Positions 21,445 to 48,040 of a DNA stretch of 64,000 nucleotides are shown here, one piece after another. Numbering within the stretch: the stretch's first letter is position 1; the number at the start of each line of letters is the position of its first letter. Below the pieces are notes generated by a model that was given only the letters and a program-made list of their open reading frames with translations, ran no database searches and was not told the DNA's origin. A program made the position numbers and the translations under genes. Location: assembly GCA_024742475.1 (NCBI GenBank), contig JANSYI010000017.1, positions 74,529-138,528 of the forward strand, read 5' to 3'. The stretch is from a bacterium. Its GTDB lineage: Bacteria > Myxococcota_A > Polyangia > Nannocystales > Nannocystaceae.

Positions 21445-21569
21445 GCACCCTTCCGCCGCGAACCGCGCCCTGGGCGCGGCCTGGCGCACCCCGAGAAAAA
21501 AAAGATCAGGCTCGGCGGAACTTCCCAGAACCCTGGGTGTCCTGCCGCCTGAACCCGAAGGACCTCCCG

Positions 21570-23741
21570 ATGTCCCAGACGCTCCAACTCAGAATCTTCC
21601 ACAACGGCTCGCTGGTCGAAGAGAAGACGCTCTCCCAAGACGTCATCAAGATCGGCAAGCTGAAGAGCTCGCACCTCTGCCTCGAGGACGACGCGGTCGC
21701 GCGCATGCACGCCGTCATCGAGGTCTCGGGCTCGGACGTCCGCGTCATCGACCTCGGCAGCTCCACCGGAACCCAGCTCAACAGCCAGCGGGTCGAGAAG
21801 AACGCCGTCCTCAAAGATGGCGACGCGCTCGAGTTTGGCCCCTACCGCGTCGAGGTCGGCTTCGCCGCAGCGCCCGCCGCGGCCGCCGCTCCAGCACAGG
21901 ATCAGACCGTCGTTGGCCCGGCGCCCTCGCAGCAGCCCGTCGCCGCAGCCGCGCCCGTTGCAGCAGCCGCTCCGGTTGCAGCGGCAGCCGCCGCTCCAGC
22001 CGCAGCGCCTGTCGCAGCGGCAGCTCCGATGGGCGCCGCAGCTCGCCCGGTCATGCAGGTCGATGCGTCGGAGGTCGAGCGCCAAGACGGCTCGACCGTC
22101 ACCGAGGTCATGACCATCTACGGCCGCACCGTCCTCGACGTGCAGCACGTGGGGCAGACCAAGAGCCGCCGCGCGTCCGCGCCGGTGTTCTTGGCGCTCG
22201 GTGGTCTCATGATGGTGGGCGGGATCGGGTTCCTCGCCTCCCAAACCTTCCTCATCAGCAGCGACTGGGAAACCTACGACCAAGAGAAGACCGACAACGC
22301 GGTCGCGGGTCGTCCGGCGCCTCAGGCTCCGGGGCACTTCGGCGGTATCGGGATCGCTCTCGCCCTCGTGGGTCTGGTCCCCTTCGGCATCGGCGTCGCT
22401 CGCCTCGGCGACAAGGGCGTCCCCAACTACACCATCGGCGAGGGCCACGACTCGACCTTTGCGGCACCGCCGGCGGGTCTGCCCGACTCGGCCGCCTTCC
22501 CGCTCGTTCGGGGCAGCGACTCGGGTGACTCCAGCCTGAACTTCACCGCCGAGATGACGGGTGACGTCACCCTCGATGGTCAGAAGCTCAGCCTGCAAGA
22601 GCTCGTCAGCTCCGGTCGCGCCGCGGCCATGGGCTCGACCTACTCCTTCCCCATCCCCGCCGGCGCGCACTGCAAGGTGGCGCACAACGGGCTGGTCTTC
22701 CACGTCAACTCGGTCCCGCCCGGCAAGGTCATTGCCCAGAAGTCCGAGACCGACAAGCCGTTCTGGCTCTACAGCGCCGCGTCGCTGGTCGTCCTGGGCT
22801 CGCTCCTGGTCCTCGCTCACCTGGCGCTTCCCCCCGAAGACGGCATGAGCCTCGACGACGACATGTCCGAGAACCGCTTCGTCGGCTACATGAACCAGCC
22901 CGACGAGACGCCCGAAGAAGAGCCTCCGCCAGAGCAGGAGAACTCCGACGACGAAGCCGGCGGCACCGGCCAGCGTCACAAGGGCGAAGAGGGCAAGATG
23001 GGCAAGCCCACGTCCAAGCAGAAGTCCGGCCTCTACGCGATGAAGGGCCCCAAGGACGCCATCCCGCAGATGGCTCGGAACTTCGACCCGGACATGCAGG
23101 CGCGTCAGGCCGGTATTCTCGGCATGATGTCCTCCGAGAGCGGCCACTTCCTGGCCTCGCCCTACGGCGGCGCCTTCGCGGTCGGCAACGACGACGAGGA
23201 CGTCTGGGGCGGCCTCACCGGAACCGAGGTGGGTGAAGCCTTCGGTGTTGGTGGACTCGGTCTCGTGGGTACGGGCCGCGGTGGCGGTGGTACCGGCGAA
23301 GGCACCATCGGCCTCGGTAACACCGGCCTCATCGGCAAGGGTGGTGGCGGCGGCACCGGTTCCGGCTACGGTCGCGGATCGGGTGCTGGGTTCGGTGGCC
23401 GCGGCAAGCGGGTCCCCCGAATCCGCCAGGCCAAGGCCAAGGTCAAGGGTGCGCTCGACAAGGACATCATCCGCCGTATCGTCCGCGCGCACATCAACGA
23501 GGTTCGCCACTGCTACAACCAGGGCCTCGTCAAGGACCCCAACCTCAAGGGTCGCGTCGCGGTTCAGTTCACCATCGGACCCACCGGTAAGGTGCCCGTC
23601 GCTGTCGTGGCTCAGTCCTCGCTCAAGGACAAGAACGTCGCCAACTGCGTGGCCAAGGCGGTGAAGCGCTGGAAGTTCCCCAAGCCGCAAGGCGGCGGCA
23701 ACGTGGTGGTCACCTACCCGTTCGTCCTCGAGCCCGGCTGA
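21570..23741 (+). CDS. gltG: FHA domain / transmembrane / Gly-rich / TonB_C-like protein, GltG/PglI-like
   Basis: N-terminal FHA domain (IKIGKLKSSHLCLEDDAVARMHAVIE...VIDLGSSTGTQLN), an Ala/Pro linker, three hydrophobic segments and a Gly-rich region. The C-terminal AgmX/PglI-type domain reads ALDKDIIRRIVRAHINEVRHCYNQGL...VTYPFVL. Confidence 0.8.
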   Translation: MSQTLQLRIFHNGSLVEEKTLSQDVIKIGKLKSSHLCLEDDAVARMHAVIEVSGSDVRVIDLGSSTGTQLNSQRVEKNAVLKDGDALEFGPYRVEVGFAAAPAAAAAPAQDQTVVGPAPSQQPVAAAAPVAAAAPVAAAAAAPAAAPVAAAAPMGAAARPVMQVDASEVERQDGSTVTEVMTIYGRTVLDVQHVGQTKSRRASAPVFLALGGLMMVGGIGFLASQTFLISSDWETYDQEKTDNAVAGRPAPQAPGHFGGIGIALALVGLVPFGIGVARLGDKGVPNYTIGEGHDSTFAAPPAGLPDSAAFPLVRGSDSGDSSLNFTAEMTGDVTLDGQKLSLQELVSSGRAAAMGSTYSFPIPAGAHCKVAHNGLVFHVNSVPPGKVIAQKSETDKPFWLYSAASLVVLGSLLVLAHLALPPEDGMSLDDDMSENRFVGYMNQPDETPEEEPPPEQENSDDEAGGTGQRHKGEEGKMGKPTSKQKSGLYAMKGPKDAIPQMARNFDPDMQARQAGILGMMSSESGHFLASPYGGAFAVGNDDEDVWGGLTGTEVGEAFGVGGLGLVGTGRGGGGTGEGTIGLGNTGLIGKGGGGGTGSGYGRGSGAGFGGRGKRVPRIRQAKAKVKGALDKDIIRRIVRAHINEVRHCYNQGLVKDPNLKGRVAVQFTIGPTGKVPVAVVAQSSLKDKNVANCVAKAVKRWKFPKPQGGGNVVVTYPFVLEPG

Positions 23742-23767
23742 TTTAGACCGGATCGAAGACAGAGAAG

Positions 23768-23795
23768 GGCGAGCTCCTCGGAGTTCGCCTTTTTT
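23768..23795 (+). terminator. Rho-independent terminator after gltG-like gene
   Basis: GGCGAGCT-cctcgg-AGTTCGCC hairpin followed by TTTTTT (23790-23795). Confidence 0.7.
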
Positions 23796-24002
23796 GATTG
23801 GTTTGTAGGGGGAACCTCTCGGTTCCCCTCGCTGCGGCCGGCAAAGCCGCCCTTCGCTCACCCTGATTGGTTTGGAAGGGGAACCTCTCGGTTCCCCTCG
23901 CTGCGGCCGGCAAAGCCGCCCTTCGCTCACCCTGATTGGTTTGTAAGGGGAACCTCTCGGTTCCCCTCGCTGCGGCCGGCAAAGCCGCCCTTCGCTCACC
24001 CC
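23796..24002. repeat. Tandem repeat, 3 x 69 bp, each unit carrying the hairpin GGGGAACC-TCTC-GGTTCCCC
   Basis: Units start at 23796, 23865 and 23934 and are near-identical, differing only in the gtag/ggaa/gtaa positions. The unit is gattggtttgtagggggaacctctcggttcccctcgctgcggccggcaaagccgcccttcgctcaccct. Confidence 0.95.
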
Positions 24003-24023
24003 TCCAAGGTCGGGCTGGCGCCC

Positions 24024-24215
24024 TCGCTCGCGGACCCGGAGGGTCCGCTCCTCCGCCTCCGAGCGTCGGTGGTTGGCGGGGCGCCCTTCGCTCGCGGAGC
24101 CGGAGGGTTCGCTCCTCCGCCTCCGAGCGTGGGTGGTTGGCGGGGCGCCCTCGCTCGCGGACCCGGAGGGGCTGCTCCTCCGCCTCCGAGCGTCGGTGGT
24201 TGGGCTGGCGCCCAC
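24024..24215. repeat. Tandem repeat, 3 x 63-64 bp (tcgctcgcggacccggagggtccgctcctccgcctccgagcgtcggtggttggcggggcgccc)
   Basis: Units start at 24024, 24088 and 24151 with a few substitutions each. Each contains an imperfect GCGGACC/GGTCCGC hairpin. Confidence 0.9.
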
Positions 24216-24305
24216 GCTCGCTCGCCGTTGTCTCGCTCCCTCCAACGCTGCCCTCGGAGAGGTACGGGACAGCACCACCTAACCGAACGCGACGGAGTCG
24301 CGGAG

Positions 24306-24390
24306 CGACGAGCGAGGGCGCAGCCCGACCTTGGAGGGAGTCGCGGAGGAAGGCTTGGCCTCCGCAGCGACGGGAACCGAGAGGTTCCCC
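24306..24390. repeat. Inverted copy of the GGGGAACC-hairpin element (right arm of composite repeat)
   Basis: Its reverse complement (ggggaacctctcggttcccgtcgctgcggaggccaagccttcctccgcgactccctccaaggtcgggctgcgccctcgctcg) aligns with 23950-24030 (ggggaacctctcggttcccctcgctgcggccggcaaagccgcccttcgctcacccctccaaggtcgggctggcgccctcgctcg). Confidence 0.85.
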
Positions 24391-24487
24391 GAAGAGGCGC
24401 CCTCGCCCTTGTCACCTAGGAGCGGCGCCGATACCATCCGAGACCGAGCCGCCCCGTTCCCCCTCACCCGGCGGGGCCACCCACGAC

Positions 24488-25396
24488 ATGCGCCGCATCG
24501 TTCTTCTTCTCGCGTTGTCCGTTCCCGTTGTCGCAACCGCGCCCGGTTGCAAGCTGGCGAGTCGCCAGCGCGTCCAGTCCACCAACCGGATGAACGAAGG
24601 CATCAAGGCCGAGAAGAAGGGCAACTCTTCGCAGGCCGAGCGCTACCTCAAGGAAGCGATCGAAATCGATCCGACCAACGCGAAGGCGCACTACACGTTG
24701 GGCATCGTCTACCAGAAGCAGAACAAGCTGGTCGACGCGCAGAAGGCCTTCCAAGACGCCGTGGACAACATGGGAGAGGCGCCCAACGCCAACTACATGT
24801 TCAAGCTGGGTGTGGTCACGGCCGCACAGGGTGACGAGCCGGGCGCGCTTCAGGCCGACAAAGAGGCCAAGTACAAAGAGGCGCTGACCAAGTACCAAGA
24901 GACGATGAAGCTCGACCCGAACCACTACCAGGCGAGTTTCCGGATGGGCGTCATCTACGAAGCGCTCGACCAGCCGGTACAAGCCGACGGTGCGTTCCGC
25001 AAGGCAATCGAGCTCAACCCGAGCTTCAGCGACTCCTTCGTCTCGCTCGGCAACATGTACATCGACTACGGCCACGCCAACGTGGGCCAAGCCGTTCTCG
25101 AGACCGGTGTCAAGGTCAACGACAACGACGCCAAGATGTGGAACGGCCTGGGCCGTGCGCAGATGGCCCTCAACAAGCCCGCCGAGGCCGTCGAGTCGTT
25201 CAAGACCGCCAAAGCGATCGATCCCGACCTGCCCGACGTCCTGCTGGGCCTCGGCATGGCCTACGCCGAGATGCGCAAGCGCAAGGAGGCCATCGAGGCG
25301 CTCCAGGGCTTCCTCTCCAAGGCGGGCAACGACGTGCCCGAGCACCTCAAGAAGGCCGCAAACAGCACGATCGCGCGCATGCAGGACGTGATCTGA
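24488..25396 (+). CDS. TPR lipoprotein (302 aa) between gltG-like and gltI-like genes
   Basis: ATG 24488. Lipobox VVATAPGC. Clear 34-aa TPR repeats (AERYLKEAIEIDPTNAKAHYTLGIVYQKQNK and others). Confidence 0.8.
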   Translation: MRRIVLLLALSVPVVATAPGCKLASRQRVQSTNRMNEGIKAEKKGNSSQAERYLKEAIEIDPTNAKAHYTLGIVYQKQNKLVDAQKAFQDAVDNMGEAPNANYMFKLGVVTAAQGDEPGALQADKEAKYKEALTKYQETMKLDPNHYQASFRMGVIYEALDQPVQADGAFRKAIELNPSFSDSFVSLGNMYIDYGHANVGQAVLETGVKVNDNDAKMWNGLGRAQMALNKPAEAVESFKTAKAIDPDLPDVLLGLGMAYAEMRKRKEAIEALQGFLSKAGNDVPEHLKKAANSTIARMQDVI

Positions 25397-25416
25397 TCCT
25401 TCGCGGGTAGTGCTCC

Positions 25417-25468
25417 GGGGGTTCTACGGGGACCCCCCCAGCGGGTGAGGGGTCCCCTCCGAACCCCC
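25417..25468. repeat. Nested GC-rich inverted repeats (REP-like)
   Basis: The outer stem is GGGGGTTC (25417-25424) / GAACCCCC (25461-25468). The inner stem is GGGGACCCC (25428-25436) / GGGGTCCCC (25449-25457). The sequence CCCTTCGC follows, as in the other repeat copies. Confidence 0.7.
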
Positions 25469-25754
25469 TTCGCTGGGGAGACTGCGCTCATCCTTTTCTG
25501 TTTTTTCCGCTGCGCGCCCCTTCGGGGCGCTCGCTCTCCTGCTAAGGGGCAGCGGTGGGGGATTCATCTCCCGCCTCGTGCCCGTTGAAGACCCGGGCAT
25601 CGGTCCGGGTTTTCTCGTTGAGGCGCGTCGGTGGGCCGGTCTCGTTCTGTTGGGTCACTGCACCCGAGTTCACGTGGGTTGATCGGGGTCGAGTCGGCGT
25701 TGTCCGGTCGAGATCGAAGGTGCGGAAATTGGGCGCGCAGGGGTGCCTAGGCGT

Positions 25755-25838: not shown

Positions 25839-37775
<11,937 letters not shown>

Positions 37776-37851: not shown

Positions 37852-39606
37852 TCACTCCTCGGGGGCGTCGAACTGAATCGCCGCCTTCTCGAACATCTGT
37901 ACGAGGTTCTGCTTGTCCACAGCCTTGAGGTACGCCTCTCGGGCCTCGACCGTGCCGTCCTGCACGAGCGCGACGAGGTGGTCGTTGAGGTTTTGCATGC
38001 CGATATCCTTGCTCACCTGCATCGTGTTCTTGAGCTGGTGCGTCTTGCCTTCGCGGATGAGGTTGCCGACCGCGTTGGTGTGCAAGAGGATCTCGTAGGC
38101 TGCGACCCGACCGCCGGTCTTGCGGCGGAGCAAGGTCTGGCCGATGACGCCACGCAGCGAACCGCCGAGCATCGTTCGGATCTGCGCTTGTTGGTCGCCA
38201 GGGAACTGGTCGATGAGACGATCGACGGTGCTCGGTGCCGTCGTCGTGTGCAGCGTGCCGAAGACGAGGTGCCCGGTCTCGGCCGTCTCGAGCGCGATGT
38301 GAATCGTCTCGAGGTCCCGAAGCTCGCCGACGAGAATCACGTCGGGATCCTCGCGCAGGGCCGCACGCAGGGCGGACTTGAACGACTTGGTGTGCCGCCC
38401 GACCTCGCGCTGGTTGATCAAGCACCGCTTGTTGTCGTGGACGAACTCGATCGGGTCTTCGATCGTGATGATGTGGTCGTCGCGGTTGCGGTTGATGAAG
38501 TCGATCATCGACGCGAGCGTGGTCGACTTGCCCGAGCCCGTGGGGCCCGTGACGAGCACGAGGCCCTTGGAGAGCCAGCACAGGTCCAGGACTTTGGGCG
38601 GAAGGCCGATGACGTCGGGCGTCAGGATGTCGACAGGGATCTGCCGAAAGACCGCGCCCATGCCCTTGCGGTCGGCGAAGTAGTTGGCGCGAAACCTTGC
38701 GACTCCGCGGATCGCGTAGGCGAAGTCGGCGTCGGCGGTCTCGACGAAGTCCGCGTAGGCGTTGTCGTCGACGATCTCGAGCAGGAGCTCTGCGAGCTCG
38801 TTGGCGGGAAAGGAAGGATGGCCTTCGAGTGGCTGCATCTTCCCGTGCAGTCGAACCATCGGTCGGCTCTCCGCGGAGAGGTGGAGGTCGCTCGCGTCGA
38901 GTTCGACCATCTGACGCAGCATGGCGTCGAGGCGTGGGGTGCCGGCGGGGCGAACGCGACGCGGCGCCAAGCGGTACCCCAGACCATCGGCCGCGGGCGA
39001 GGAGGACTGCGCCGCCGCGACGACAGCCGGCGAGGCGGCCTGTGCCGCGACGGGGGCGGACTCGGGCTCTTTCGGCGGCGGCTCCGGTTGCGGCGCTTTC
39101 GTCGAGGTGGTCTCCGGTTGCGGCGCTCTCGTCGAGGTGGTCTCCGGCGCAACTGAGCGCCGAGGAAGACCCGTCTCGGGCCCCCCGAGGGAGGGGATGT
39201 CGACGGTTCGAGGCTTCCTCTTGTTGGCCGGGGCCTCGTCGGGCTTGGGCTGACGACGTTCCCGCTTGGGCGTGGGCGAGGGGGTGCTCGCGGCTGGCTT
39301 GGGTCTCGAGGCGCCCCGCAGTCGCACGGTCACGCTGAGCTTCACGCCCTTCTTGACGACCGTCGCCGTCAAGCGCTGCGTGCCGACGTCGAAGTTGACG
39401 TCCCGGGTCTTGTCTCCGCCGACCAGCAGCGACGCAACGTCGGTGCCCTCGAAGAAACGAGCGATCGCGCGAGCGTTGAGTGGGGTGACCGTCACGGGCA
39501 GGTCGCGCGTGGTCGACTTCACGATGGCCGGGGAGCCAACGGCAAACGCGAGCTCGTTGGCATCCGGCCGTTCGAGGTACGAGCAGAGTTGACTCAGCTT
39601 GCTCAC
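37852..39606 (-). CDS. pilT: PilT-family type IV pilus retraction ATPase paralog with ~225-aa N-terminal extension
   Basis: Walker A GPTGSGKSTT, the Asp box and Walker B (DVILVGELRD), His box TGHLVFGTLHT, and the PilT-type AVGNLIREGKTHQL motif. A full PilT N-terminal domain is present (ASDLHLSAESRPMVRLHG). An extra domain and a Pro/Thr linker precede it. Confidence 0.85.
   Translation of the reverse strand: MSKLSQLCSYLERPDANELAFAVGSPAIVKSTTRDLPVTVTPLNARAIARFFEGTDVASLLVGGDKTRDVNFDVGTQRLTATVVKKGVKLSVTVRLRGASRPKPAASTPSPTPKRERRQPKPDEAPANKRKPRTVDIPSLGGPETGLPRRSVAPETTSTRAPQPETTSTKAPQPEPPPKEPESAPVAAQAASPAVVAAAQSSSPAADGLGYRLAPRRVRPAGTPRLDAMLRQMVELDASDLHLSAESRPMVRLHGKMQPLEGHPSFPANELAELLLEIVDDNAYADFVETADADFAYAIRGVARFRANYFADRKGMGAVFRQIPVDILTPDVIGLPPKVLDLCWLSKGLVLVTGPTGSGKSTTLASMIDFINRNRDDHIITIEDPIEFVHDNKRCLINQREVGRHTKSFKSALRAALREDPDVILVGELRDLETIHIALETAETGHLVFGTLHTTTAPSTVDRLIDQFPGDQQAQIRTMLGGSLRGVIGQTLLRRKTGGRVAAYEILLHTNAVGNLIREGKTHQLKNTMQVSKDIGMQNLNDHLVALVQDGTVEAREAYLKAVDKQNLVQMFEKAAIQFDAPEE
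39082..39147. repeat. 2.2 x 30-bp tandem repeat inside the pilT-paralog linker
   Basis: ctccggttgcggcgctttcgtcgaggtggt and ctccggttgcggcgctctcgtcgaggtggt, followed by a partial third unit ctccgg. The two full units encode APETTSTRAPQPETTSTKAPQPE on the minus strand. Confidence 0.9.
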
Positions 39607-47652: not shown

Positions 47653-47711
47653 CCGGGTCGCACAAAGACTTGACGCTCTGCCGGGGAGCCTCTACTTTTC
47701 GCGTCCCCACC

Positions 47712-47793
<82 letters not shown>

Positions 47794-47800
47794 CTCAAAA

Positions 47801-47830
47801 ACCCGAGTCCGAAAGGACTCGGGTTTTTTT
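47801..47830 (+). terminator. Rho-independent terminator after tRNA-Leu
   Basis: ACCCGAGTCC-gaaa-GGACTCGGGT is a 10-bp perfect stem, followed by a run of 7 T. Confidence 0.85.
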
Positions 47831-47837
47831 CCTTTTA

Positions 47838-48040
47838 GGGGGAACCTCTCGGTTCCCGACGCTGCGGGGGCATAGCCCCCTTCGCGCCTCCCTCCAAGGT
47901 CGGGCGCGGAGCGCCCTCGCTCGCTCGCCTTCGGCTCGCTCCTTCGCGTTCGCTTCGGCGGTGGTGGGGCGGAGGGCAGCTCGCTCCTTCGCGTTCGCTT
48001 CGGCGCAGGCGGATGCGAACCCGCAGTCGTTGGGGTAAAA
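47838..48040. repeat. Second locus of the GGGGAACC-hairpin repeat family, with an internal ~40-bp direct repeat
   Basis: gggggaacctctcggttcccgacgctgcgggggcatagcccccttcgcgcctccctccaaggtcgggcgcggagcgccctcgctcgctcgcc shares blocks with 23950-24030. The sequence gctcgctccttcgcgttcgcttcggcg then occurs twice. Confidence 0.85.

Follow-up and report, generated by a model that had tools for sequence, protein, structure and literature searches.

A hairpin-rich mosaic repeat at gene ends in Nannocystales and its probable local expansion between a GltG-like and a TPR gene

Structured intergenic mosaic repeats form a known class of bacterial sequences. The BOX elements of Streptococcus pneumoniae are intergenic and modular (boxA-boxB(n)-boxC) with a variable number of internal modules, and the mycobacterial interspersed repetitive units (MIRUs), reportedly described by Supply et al. 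in 1997, carry small open reading frames (ORFs) that link flanking genes and are not made of conserved GC hairpins. Enterobacteria and pseudomonads hold the repetitive extragenic palindromic (REP) sequences, the bacterial interspersed mosaic elements (BIMEs) and the REP doublets forming hairpins (REPINs), with their REP-associated tyrosine transposases (RAYTs) (Bertels and Rainey 2011, PMC3116915; Bertels et al. 2017, PMC5581495). Here we present a computational analysis of a composite repeat array in a 64,000-nucleotide stretch of a Nannocystaceae genome (contig JANSYI010000017.1; the whole stretch is called the window), located in the 746-nt spacer between a GltG-like gene (21537-23741) and a tetratricopeptide repeat (TPR) gene (24488-25396). 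It is fairly probable, though well short of certain, that the array grew locally from two convergent copies of a REP/BIME/BOX-like mosaic repeat that is rich in hairpins, non-autonomous and restricted to one lineage.

In agreement with the preliminary description of this DNA, the array begins directly past the T-run of the terminator of the GltG-like gene. Some 18 nt separate its end from the promoter-like site of the TPR gene, and the whole spacer folds with z = -7.3. The hairpins are numbered H1 to H4, and covariance model R1 covers H1, H2 and the C-rich box.

23762-23795, + strand: intrinsic terminator of the GltG-like gene (terminator scan; stop codon 23739-23741), host sequence
23795-23863, 23864-23932 and 23933-24001, + strand: three 69-nt tandem units (Tandem Repeats Finder, repeat search)
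23806-23870 (58.8 bits), 23875-23939 (58.3 bits) and 23944-24009 (77.1 bits), + strand: matches of model R1 to the 69-nt units
23809-23828, again 23878-23897 and 23947-23966, + strand: hairpin H1, GGGGAACC-TCTC-GGTTCCCC
23831-23857, again 23900-23926 and 23969-23995, + strand: hairpin H2, GCTGCGG-CCGGC-AAA-GCCGC-CCTTCGC
24000-24023, + strand: C-rich box CCCTCCAAGG, then hairpin H3 (GGGC-TGGC-GCCC)
24017-24221, + strand: about 3.2 tandem units of 63-64 nt (Tandem Repeats Finder, repeat search)
24030-24048, weaker at 24094-24112 and 24157-24175, + strand: hairpin H4, GCGGACC-CGGAG-GGTCCGC
24255-24393, - strand: inverted (convergent) element copy, with a model R1 match at 24329-24393 (81.3 bits)
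24371-24390 (H1), 24340-24371 (H2), 24329-24338 (C-rich box) and 24255-24328 (H3 and tail), - strand: parts of the inverted copy
24409-24437, + strand: promoter-like site of the TPR gene, TTGTCA-17-TACCAT, host sequence to the right of the array

Each 69-nt unit is composed of host flank TGATTGGTTTG, a short leader, H1 and H2 (an outer stem and a variable, triloop-capped inner stem on either side of a conserved internal loop), and the third unit runs on into the remaining element. Tandem Repeats Finder (23795-24001, period 69, 3.0 copies, 97% matches, score 400; 24017-24221, period 63, 3.2 copies, 90% matches, score 338) and a separate repeat search, which found both unit types again, agree with the earlier count of three 69-bp and about three 63-bp units. 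The middle repeats had been regarded as a different sequence; they are tail modules of the same element, each 63-64-nt unit comprising the 3' arm of H3, CTCGCTCGC, H4, C-rich CTCCTCCGCCTCC and the G-rich GGTGGTTGG tail, just as the 69-nt unit is its H1-H2 module. An inverted copy is present as had been claimed, but the bounds given for it were too short, since it reaches left to cover about 24255-24393; its H2 variant differs from that of the forward copies. Inverted arms were recovered by the repeat search at 23809-23844/24355-24390 (36 nt, 89%) and at 23978-24017/24321-24360 (40 nt, 80%). The shared blocks lie where they had first been placed: the 20-mer GGGGAACCTCTCGGTTCCCC, with at most 3 mismatches, has five matches in the window (23809, 23878 and 23947 on the + strand, 24371 on the - strand, 47839 on the + strand) against 0.01 expected from shuffles, block CCCTCCAAGGTCGGGC occurs at 24000, at 24323 on the - strand and at 47890, and block GCGCCCTCGCTCG was likewise found at its reported positions. 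The further copy at 47.84 kb lies past a tRNA-Leu gene, and model R1 has no credible match in the window besides these five copies.

The element is dispersed well beyond this locus. A scan for the H1 19-mer over one genome per species returned at least 94 genome stretches, about 36 of which come from metagenome-assembled genomes (MAGs) of Nannocystales/Myxococcota and hold window-like downstream blocks; the carriers among the matches listed are JBCCQM01, CAYSPB01, CAYGTG01, CAVXIC01, JBOEGF01, CAJXVA01 and CAWCWO01. Model R1 detects 81 copies in 323 kb of 38 sources, corresponding to about eight Nannocystales genomes (the window and MAGs), which bears out the suggestion of a REP-cluster-like repeat; JBCCQM01 has it on at least 18 contigs. 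A probe free of H1 (GCCCCCTTCGCNNNNCCCTCCAAG) located six copies in four metagenome contigs, all six preceded by GG(G)GAACCTCTCGGTTCCC. Near-identical copies stand at different loci of one MAG (L029, L057), and the family was not found in the 11.8 kb sampled of the cultured relative Paraliomyxa miuraensis.

The full element is one-directional, about 130-200 nt long and ordered 5' to 3' as T-rich leader (frequently GTTCTGATTTA-like, in about ten loci), H1, H2, CCCTCCAAGG box, H3, CTCGCTCGC, H4, C-rich stretch and G-rich tail (GGTGGTGG-like). H1 is near-invariant across the main lineage, and H2 has, throughout the family, the outer stem GC..GC and the conserved internal loop TGC/TTC, above which an inner stem of variable sequence closes on a triloop, frequently GNA. 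Tail modules in other genomes are frequently sub-repeated 2-3 times, the register of tandem amplification varies, and sub-repeat periods of 63, 67, 68, 88, 90, 98, 101, 109 and 132 nt were recorded at other loci. At two loci (L020:2858-2990 and L005:2998-3061) another small palindrome, GCGTTGTCGCGAC-CCCT-GTCGCGACAACGC plus about 40 nt, is situated within the H2 loop and looks like a second repeat family inside the first. With Rfam 15, at gathering and at more permissive thresholds, only tRNA was matched in the whole window, the best match within 23700-24500 at E up to 10 was an unrelated microRNA (E = 0.21), and ten related loci had no match. Literature searches on the sequence itself, and on REP and intergenic repeats of myxobacteria, Nannocystis included, yielded nothing relevant, and a survey of the HUH superfamily leaves these taxa unmentioned (PMC6006769). 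The repeat family is apparently undescribed, consistent with its not having been recognised as a named family at first sight.

It had been noted from the window alone that the second hairpin changes its letters and keeps its stem. The stem is indeed kept in three window variants, and compensatory changes recur in 76 distinct copies, in which the paired share of cells is 88.8% (82.2% in shuffles), 12 pairs are changed on both sides, and the covariation score (0.150 vs 0.057) was reached by none of 500 shuffles; in slid controls the paired share drops to 35-58%. The central two pairs of H2 alternate among GC, CG and AU. H3 occurs as GGGC/GCCC, GCCC/GGGC, GGCGCCC/GGGCGCC and GGCACCC/GGGTGCC, and H4 as GGGCC/GGCCC, GGACC/GGTCC, TGGCC/GGCCA and CCGCC/GGCGG. 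Even the H1 stem is kept with other letters in L115 (GGGGAAACC/GGTTTCCC, GGACC/GGTCC), L014 (GGGGACT/AGTCCCC) and L084 (GGGGCCTTT/AAAGGCCCC). The stems of H2 to H4, plus H1 in divergent sublineages, are thus maintained by compensatory changes.

Placement is equally regular, with the element nearly always oriented in sense at the extreme 3' end of a transcription unit. When ORFs with a coding signature in third-position GC content are considered, H1 starts -1 to 15 nt past a same-strand stop codon at 28 loci (about 23 independent sites once orthologues are set aside), and of 41 first-of-array copies, 37 have same-strand coding sequence upstream. The remaining four comprise the tRNA-Leu copy (likewise sense), the inverted copies of the window and of L098, and one locus near a contig end without clear coding signal. 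Downstream genes are co-directional and convergent about equally often, and convergent pairs elsewhere consist of two elements, each beside its own gene end or terminator. Canonical intrinsic terminators precede the element in the window (twice), in L109 (twice), in L110 and in L111, three of them belonging to tRNA genes. The T-rich leader is element-specific: 29 of 47 copies have TTT in the 12 nt 5' of H1 against 2 of 90 control gene ends without element, a TGATT leader is seen in 10 of 47 against 1 of 90, and TTCT(A/G)(A/G) in 6 of 47 against 3 of 90. A recognisable hairpin with T-tract stands upstream in about one third of the loci, and hairpins just upstream of the element are not enriched over coding controls (Mann-Whitney p = 0.83). 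By appearance, no family search having been made, the upstream genes resemble ordinary housekeeping genes, with no class prominent.

Comparison of orthologous sites in relatives that are 84-97% identical shows that the element is gained or lost. The spacer between the GltG-like and TPR genes is filled as follows.

Window: 746 nt, 3 + 3 tandem units and one inverted copy
L098 (TPR identity 97%): 416 nt, one forward copy with decaying H1 (GGGCAGCC...), one inverted copy, no tandem units
L099 (TPR identity 89%): 171 nt, empty
L101 (CAVXIC01, TPR identity 84%): 216 nt, empty; family present elsewhere (L034, L077, L084)
L100 (TPR identity 86%): 497 nt, unrelated sequence

The inverted copy of L098 (9838-9902, minus strand) belongs to an orthologous, well-aligned and mostly identical stretch; the left half of the global alignment between L098 and the window is uninformative owing to repeats. 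The terminator of the GltG-like gene is kept in orthologous loci with and without the element, and TTGTCACCTAG...TACCAT in five of five. Similarly, TTGGTT past the terminator is found in all five loci, the empty ones included, and is therefore host sequence; since it recurs within each 69-nt unit, these units came from tandem duplication of flank plus module and not from repeated insertion. Such in-tandem growth of a module with its host flank points to replication slippage or unequal recombination. Forward and inverted copies of L098 share the H2 variant GGAGGC/GCCTCC, whereas the forward copies of the window have CCGGC/GCCGC, so the window forward copy was replaced or converted prior to amplification. 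Several sites are common to different species-level MAGs (L044/L066, L009/L091, L087/L008, L031/L020 and L031/L005), and copies can therefore persist.

The second locus of the window, upstream of lysS, holds a single copy.

47712-47794, + strand: tRNA-Leu(CAG) gene; together with a terminator at about 47797-47830 it forms the transcription unit upstream of this locus
47831-48030, + strand: single element copy (model R1 match 47836-47899, 88.6 bits; fold)

It comprises a CCTTTTA leader, H1 (47839-47858), H2 (47861-47887), the C-rich box (47890-47899), H3 and a duplicated tail, and stops a few nt short of the lysS ribosome-binding region. For comparison, window 47653-47835 was set against L114:9975-10000, L115:4286-4440 and L116:9942-10000. 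The tRNA-Leu(CAG) gene, with its promoter-like TTGACG...TACTTT and terminator between the upstream gene and lysS, is confined to the window lineage, being absent there in all three relatives with 86-92% identical lysyl-tRNA synthetase (LysRS). The lysS-upstream spacers of L114 (92%) and L116 (86%) measure 26 and 59 nt and have no element, and that of L115 (89%) contains an element of about 128 nt; in the window the gene upstream of lysS has none immediately after it, and the copy present follows the inserted tRNA-Leu. L115 has a second element behind a PatA-like response-regulator gene, at a site that is empty in L114 and L116. In both filled alleles of L115 the upstream ORF ends TTC-stop, and the empty alleles have other C-termini; because of this ending and the shared GTTCTGATTTA-like leader, the stop codon is possibly element-borne, which suggests that it may sit in DNA arriving with the element, at a protein identity of only 89-92%. 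The order of tRNA gene, intrinsic terminator and element was observed three times in different organisms (window 47712-47835; L109:7600-7720; L111:1140-1260, minus strand), and tRNA gene ends may be a preferred site for the element.

How such copies would arise can be pictured by analogy with RAYT/REP and IS200/IS605 systems. An enzyme acting in trans, with the folded single strand of H1 as its recognition site, would produce new copies; H1 is near-fixed beside freely covarying hairpins, which points to a specific binding partner and to sequence-specific recognition. The GNA triloops and almost purely Watson-Crick stems would fit a folded DNA strand. Only copies that spare genes, just past stop codons or terminators, would be expected to survive, and once in a 3' untranslated region (UTR) or read-through transcript the hairpin cluster would probably serve as a 3' exonuclease barrier or back-up terminator. 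Several observations weigh against a REP/BIME/BOX-like mobile repeat of this kind. Neither a RAYT nor an IS200/IS605 TnpA was detected among 6828 ORFs in 915 kb of flanks (best E = 0.17), in a search of low power at about 8 kb per locus that used phmmer with the Escherichia coli RAYT (4ER8) and a hidden Markov model of four IS200/605 TnpA proteins, and no gene is flanked by inverted copies. The GTAG tag of REPs is not conserved, NTA(A/G)GGGG preceding roughly half of the copies, and no target-site duplication or terminal inverted repeat delimits an inserted unit. Strict sense orientation and closeness to stop codons are atypical of REP/BIME and could mean a selected RNA function, the conservation of several sites across species-level MAGs would fit long-lived selfish repeats as well as functional elements, and the 64-kb window has only two loci. 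A bolder version, which we hold doubtful, is a mobile unit that caps gene ends, placed in sense exactly at the end of the transcription unit by a hairpin-specific enzyme other than a neighbouring RAYT or TnpA and perhaps bringing its own stop codon in the GTTCTGATTTA leader; the H1 hairpin of the actinobacterial family described below could then mean a system shared across phyla or a conserved host factor reading this hairpin.

The main rival to the REP/BIME/BOX-like reading, possible although we lean against it, is a cis-acting 3'-UTR RNA module in which H1 to H4 are selected for ending transcription, for stopping 3'-to-5' exonucleases or for tying the fate of the mRNA to the termination of translation, any spread among genes being secondary. 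A hairpin 0-15 nt past the stop codon would have to be melted by the terminating ribosome, and Liang, Rudd and Deutscher reportedly showed in 2015 that in E. coli a REP no more than about 15 nt from a stop codon lowers expression of the upstream gene via ribosome stalling and trans-translation. The sense orientation (37 of 41), the -1 to 15 nt spacing at 28 loci, compensatory changes in all stems, the retention of orthologous sites across species-level MAGs and the hairpin-plus-T-run terminators that end the variants L041, L037 and L024 would all suit such a module, as would the mismatches, which on the sense strand are G:T in 11 cases against A:C in 3. Yet the elements of the window and of L109-L111 follow strong terminators, thrice of tRNA genes, where little sense transcript is expected; the inverted copy 24255-24393 is antisense to both neighbouring genes, and the same genes lack the element in close relatives. 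The stems, moreover, are about 98% Watson-Crick with few G:U pairs, and of the two strands taken as RNA the antisense one is slightly the more stable (mean difference 1.8 kcal/mol), while the sense one has more G:U pairs.

The preliminary description had proposed a MITE-like architecture bracketed by inverted repeats of about 85 nt. A classical miniature inverted-repeat transposable element would have these as its terminal inverted repeats, with an internal repeat region and a target-site duplication, and would be moved by a DDE transposase. We regard this as improbable: arms 23947-24017 and 24321-24390 do bracket the 63-nt repeats, the whole region folds as one long hairpin, and the 97% relative has a forward and inverted pair as a block of about 255 nt, but most family members are single, one-directional or in direct tandem with no inverted partner. 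Other convergent pairs are separate elements beside their own ends, with spacings of about 350 nt in L109, 130 nt in L111 and 220 nt in L014; no direct repeats occur at the outer junctions of the window or L098, and the forward and inverted copies of the window differ in H2 variant. The bracketing repeats are thus not supported as a MITE, as the element is one-directional, has no terminal inverted repeat and no detectable target-site duplication and was already present as a forward and inverted copy in the 97% relative; the MITE-like look of the window is a local accident of two convergent copies plus amplification. Very improbable is a small-RNA array (type III antitoxin-like or another processed repeat RNA) or a translated repeat ORF, to which the tandem, structured units and the divisibility by three of 69 and 63 would lend some colour. 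The array has no promoter-like site before it, being placed between a terminator and the promoter of the next gene, that gene encodes a conserved TPR protein also present in relatives without the array, and Rfam gives no match. None of the periods of 67, 68, 88, 98, 101 and 109 nt seen elsewhere is divisible by three, and indels of 1-2 nt distinguish the copies. The non-coding nature first ascribed to the array is supported. That the array is an assembly artefact or a chance similarity is extremely improbable. Contigs from short reads break inside both loci, namely within the tandem part of the array in assemblies of three other runs and at 47944 in two further contigs; nevertheless, the three runs reproduce window 24136/24141-24487 (347-352 nt) with 0-3 mismatches, the family is present in about ten independent assemblies, and five H1 matches stand against 0.01 expected. 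The array sequence is thereby independently supported, and because the short-read contigs break in the tandem part, the unit numbers (3 and 3) rest on one assembly.

The H1 hairpin is also encountered outside Nannocystales. MAGs of Gaiellaceae/Thermoleophilia/Actinomycetota contain a separate, abundant repeat family with the exact H1 hairpin (L002, L006, L010, L011, L021, L022, L026-L028, L036, L038, L039, L042, L043, L050, L053, L054, L058-L060, L064, L067, L073, L075, L076, L080, L081, L085, L089 and L092), laid out as a variable hairpin, GCAAG-GGGGAACCTCTCGGTTCCCC-CGAGTCCCCCTCCCCGG and a further variable hairpin. The loop of this second hairpin, TGAGCnnGCTCA, holds the TGA stop of the neighbouring gene, whose last codons form the outer arm, and the gene ends 28-45 nt (mostly 33-37) from H1 in more than 20 loci. 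On the gene strand the H1 loop reads GAGA, opposite to the myxobacterial family. In Gaiellales/Thermoleophilia the H1 hairpin is accompanied by a CCCCTCC box and a variable hairpin at gene ends, and the Actinomycetota family has no Rfam match. The two families may share H1 by homology or by convergence, and homology is not established. The exact H1 19-mer occurs singly, as an A-run/hairpin/T-run terminator of bidirectional look, in three IMG/VR viral contigs of 31-35% GC (L102:12627-12645, L103:6165-6183 and L104:505-523), and the same terminator-like hairpin in single Sumerlaeota, Clostridiales and Chloroflexia contigs (L079, L082 and L062). Since it appears as an ordinary terminator in viral contigs and unrelated bacteria, the H1 hairpin sequence can arise independently.

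Regarding the neighbourhood, the GltG-like protein matches NF033760 over its full length (E = 6.6e-109), under the equivalog cut-off. Homologues of the TPR protein and LysRS, the nearest named ones being from 'Nannocystales bacterium' (86%), Paraliomyxa miuraensis (65-67%) and Nannocystaceae/Nannocystis/Enhygromyxa (56-66%), assign the window to the Nannocystales. Past the stop of the TPR gene (25398-25476) stands a hairpin GGGGGTTC-TACG-GGGACCCCC followed by CCCTCCGAACCCCC, with a weak model score (12.8 bits, E = 0.13); it probably serves as terminator of the TPR gene itself, though it could be an element relative in decay. The 3978-aa ORF at 25839-37775, whose orthologues of about 4000 aa come after the TPR gene in all relatives, contains long imperfect tandem repeats at 27123-27336 (periods 6, 18, 57 and 90, GAGCC-rich), with codons apparently rich in Glu, Pro and Ala. 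A 30-nt unit (CTCCGGTTGCGGCGCTCTCGTCGAGGTGGT) is present in 2.2 copies of 97% identity at 39082-39147.

The analysis defines a repeat family in a poorly studied and mostly uncultured myxobacterial order, and its clean placement rule opens to test whether bacterial mosaic repeats are functional modules of 3' ends or simply tolerated junk. Should the stop codon indeed come with the element, this would be a mobile element rewriting the last codons of genes. On the practical side, the family breaks short-read assemblies and so matters for MAG quality, and the tandem number, which differs between close relatives, is a possible strain marker.

With respect to known systems, the likeness to REP/BIME is considerable: many short palindromes, GC-rich and extragenic (H1 measures 20 nt and every copy is extragenic), are clustered as mosaics at gene 3' ends, retained for long at orthologous sites, non-coding and with the hairpin kept, and about half have TA(A/G) just 5' of the hairpin, recalling the REP GTAG tag. 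However, the unit here is a four-hairpin mosaic of 130-200 nt, whereas a REP is a palindrome of 20-40 nt or a symmetric doublet; copies keep nearly always one orientation to the upstream gene with direct arrays, whereas BIMEs alternate; GTAG itself is not conserved (of 47 copies, about 10 have [GTC]TAG and roughly half NTA(A/G)), and the 915 kb of flanks yielded no RAYT. The doublet of a REPIN, two inverted REPs with a short spacer that replicate together, is likewise missing, as copies are mostly single or in direct tandem and inverted pairs are rare and at variable distance. Nor is the element a DDE-type MITE, since terminal inverted repeats and target-site duplications are absent on comparing L115 with L114 and at the window and L098 junctions. 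An intrinsic terminator does not describe it either, because the T-rich tract precedes H1 and none follows, and the scan finds only the host terminator 23762-23795; some family variants (L041, L037 and L024) carry a T-run past H3 or H4. Lastly, the units run head-to-tail over the full period with no unique spacers, unlike an array of clustered regularly interspaced short palindromic repeats (CRISPR).

The palindrome-associated transposable elements (PATEs), miniature derivatives of IS200/IS605, resemble the element in a subterminal perfect hairpin beside a short A/T-rich motif, in fixed orientation and in the lack of target duplication. TTGAT is the target of ISDra2-type elements, and several leaders here read (T/C)TGAT|TTA-H1; TnpA structures 2A6O and 2XM3 were retrieved for this comparison. 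In contrast to PATEs, each element has one H1-type hairpin without a right-end partner, TGAT occurs at 10 of 47 junctions and is absent from both empty alleles examined, and no TnpA/TnpB was seen nearby, so that with neither a pair of end hairpins nor a fixed target in the empty site it was not assigned to these miniatures. Class C group II introns are said (Robart et al. 2007) to insert just past intrinsic terminators in sense orientation, and the element too follows terminator T-runs directly and is oriented like the transcript upstream, but it has no intron domains, no Rfam group II match and a much smaller size.

MIRUs are approached in the direct tandem intergenic units of 40-100 nt, oriented with flanking genes, with the upstream stop in or at the repeat and a strain-variable number, and differ in that the unit here is a hairpin set and the array periods are not divisible by three. 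BOX elements are likewise mosaics with tandem-variable internal modules, strongly folded, non-coding and of unknown mobilising enzyme, although their sequence and host phylum are unrelated, their A and C ends are complementary where no such ends exist here, and the present element is strictly placed behind stop codons and terminators. Overall, the features that mark REP (tag, doublets), MITE and IS200/605 derivatives fail, and therefore the element is best placed as a new family in the known class of bacterial structured intergenic mosaic repeats, BOX/MIRU-like in being non-coding, modular and dispersed, with 3 + 3 units against 1 + 1 in the 97% relative and periods of 63-132 nt.

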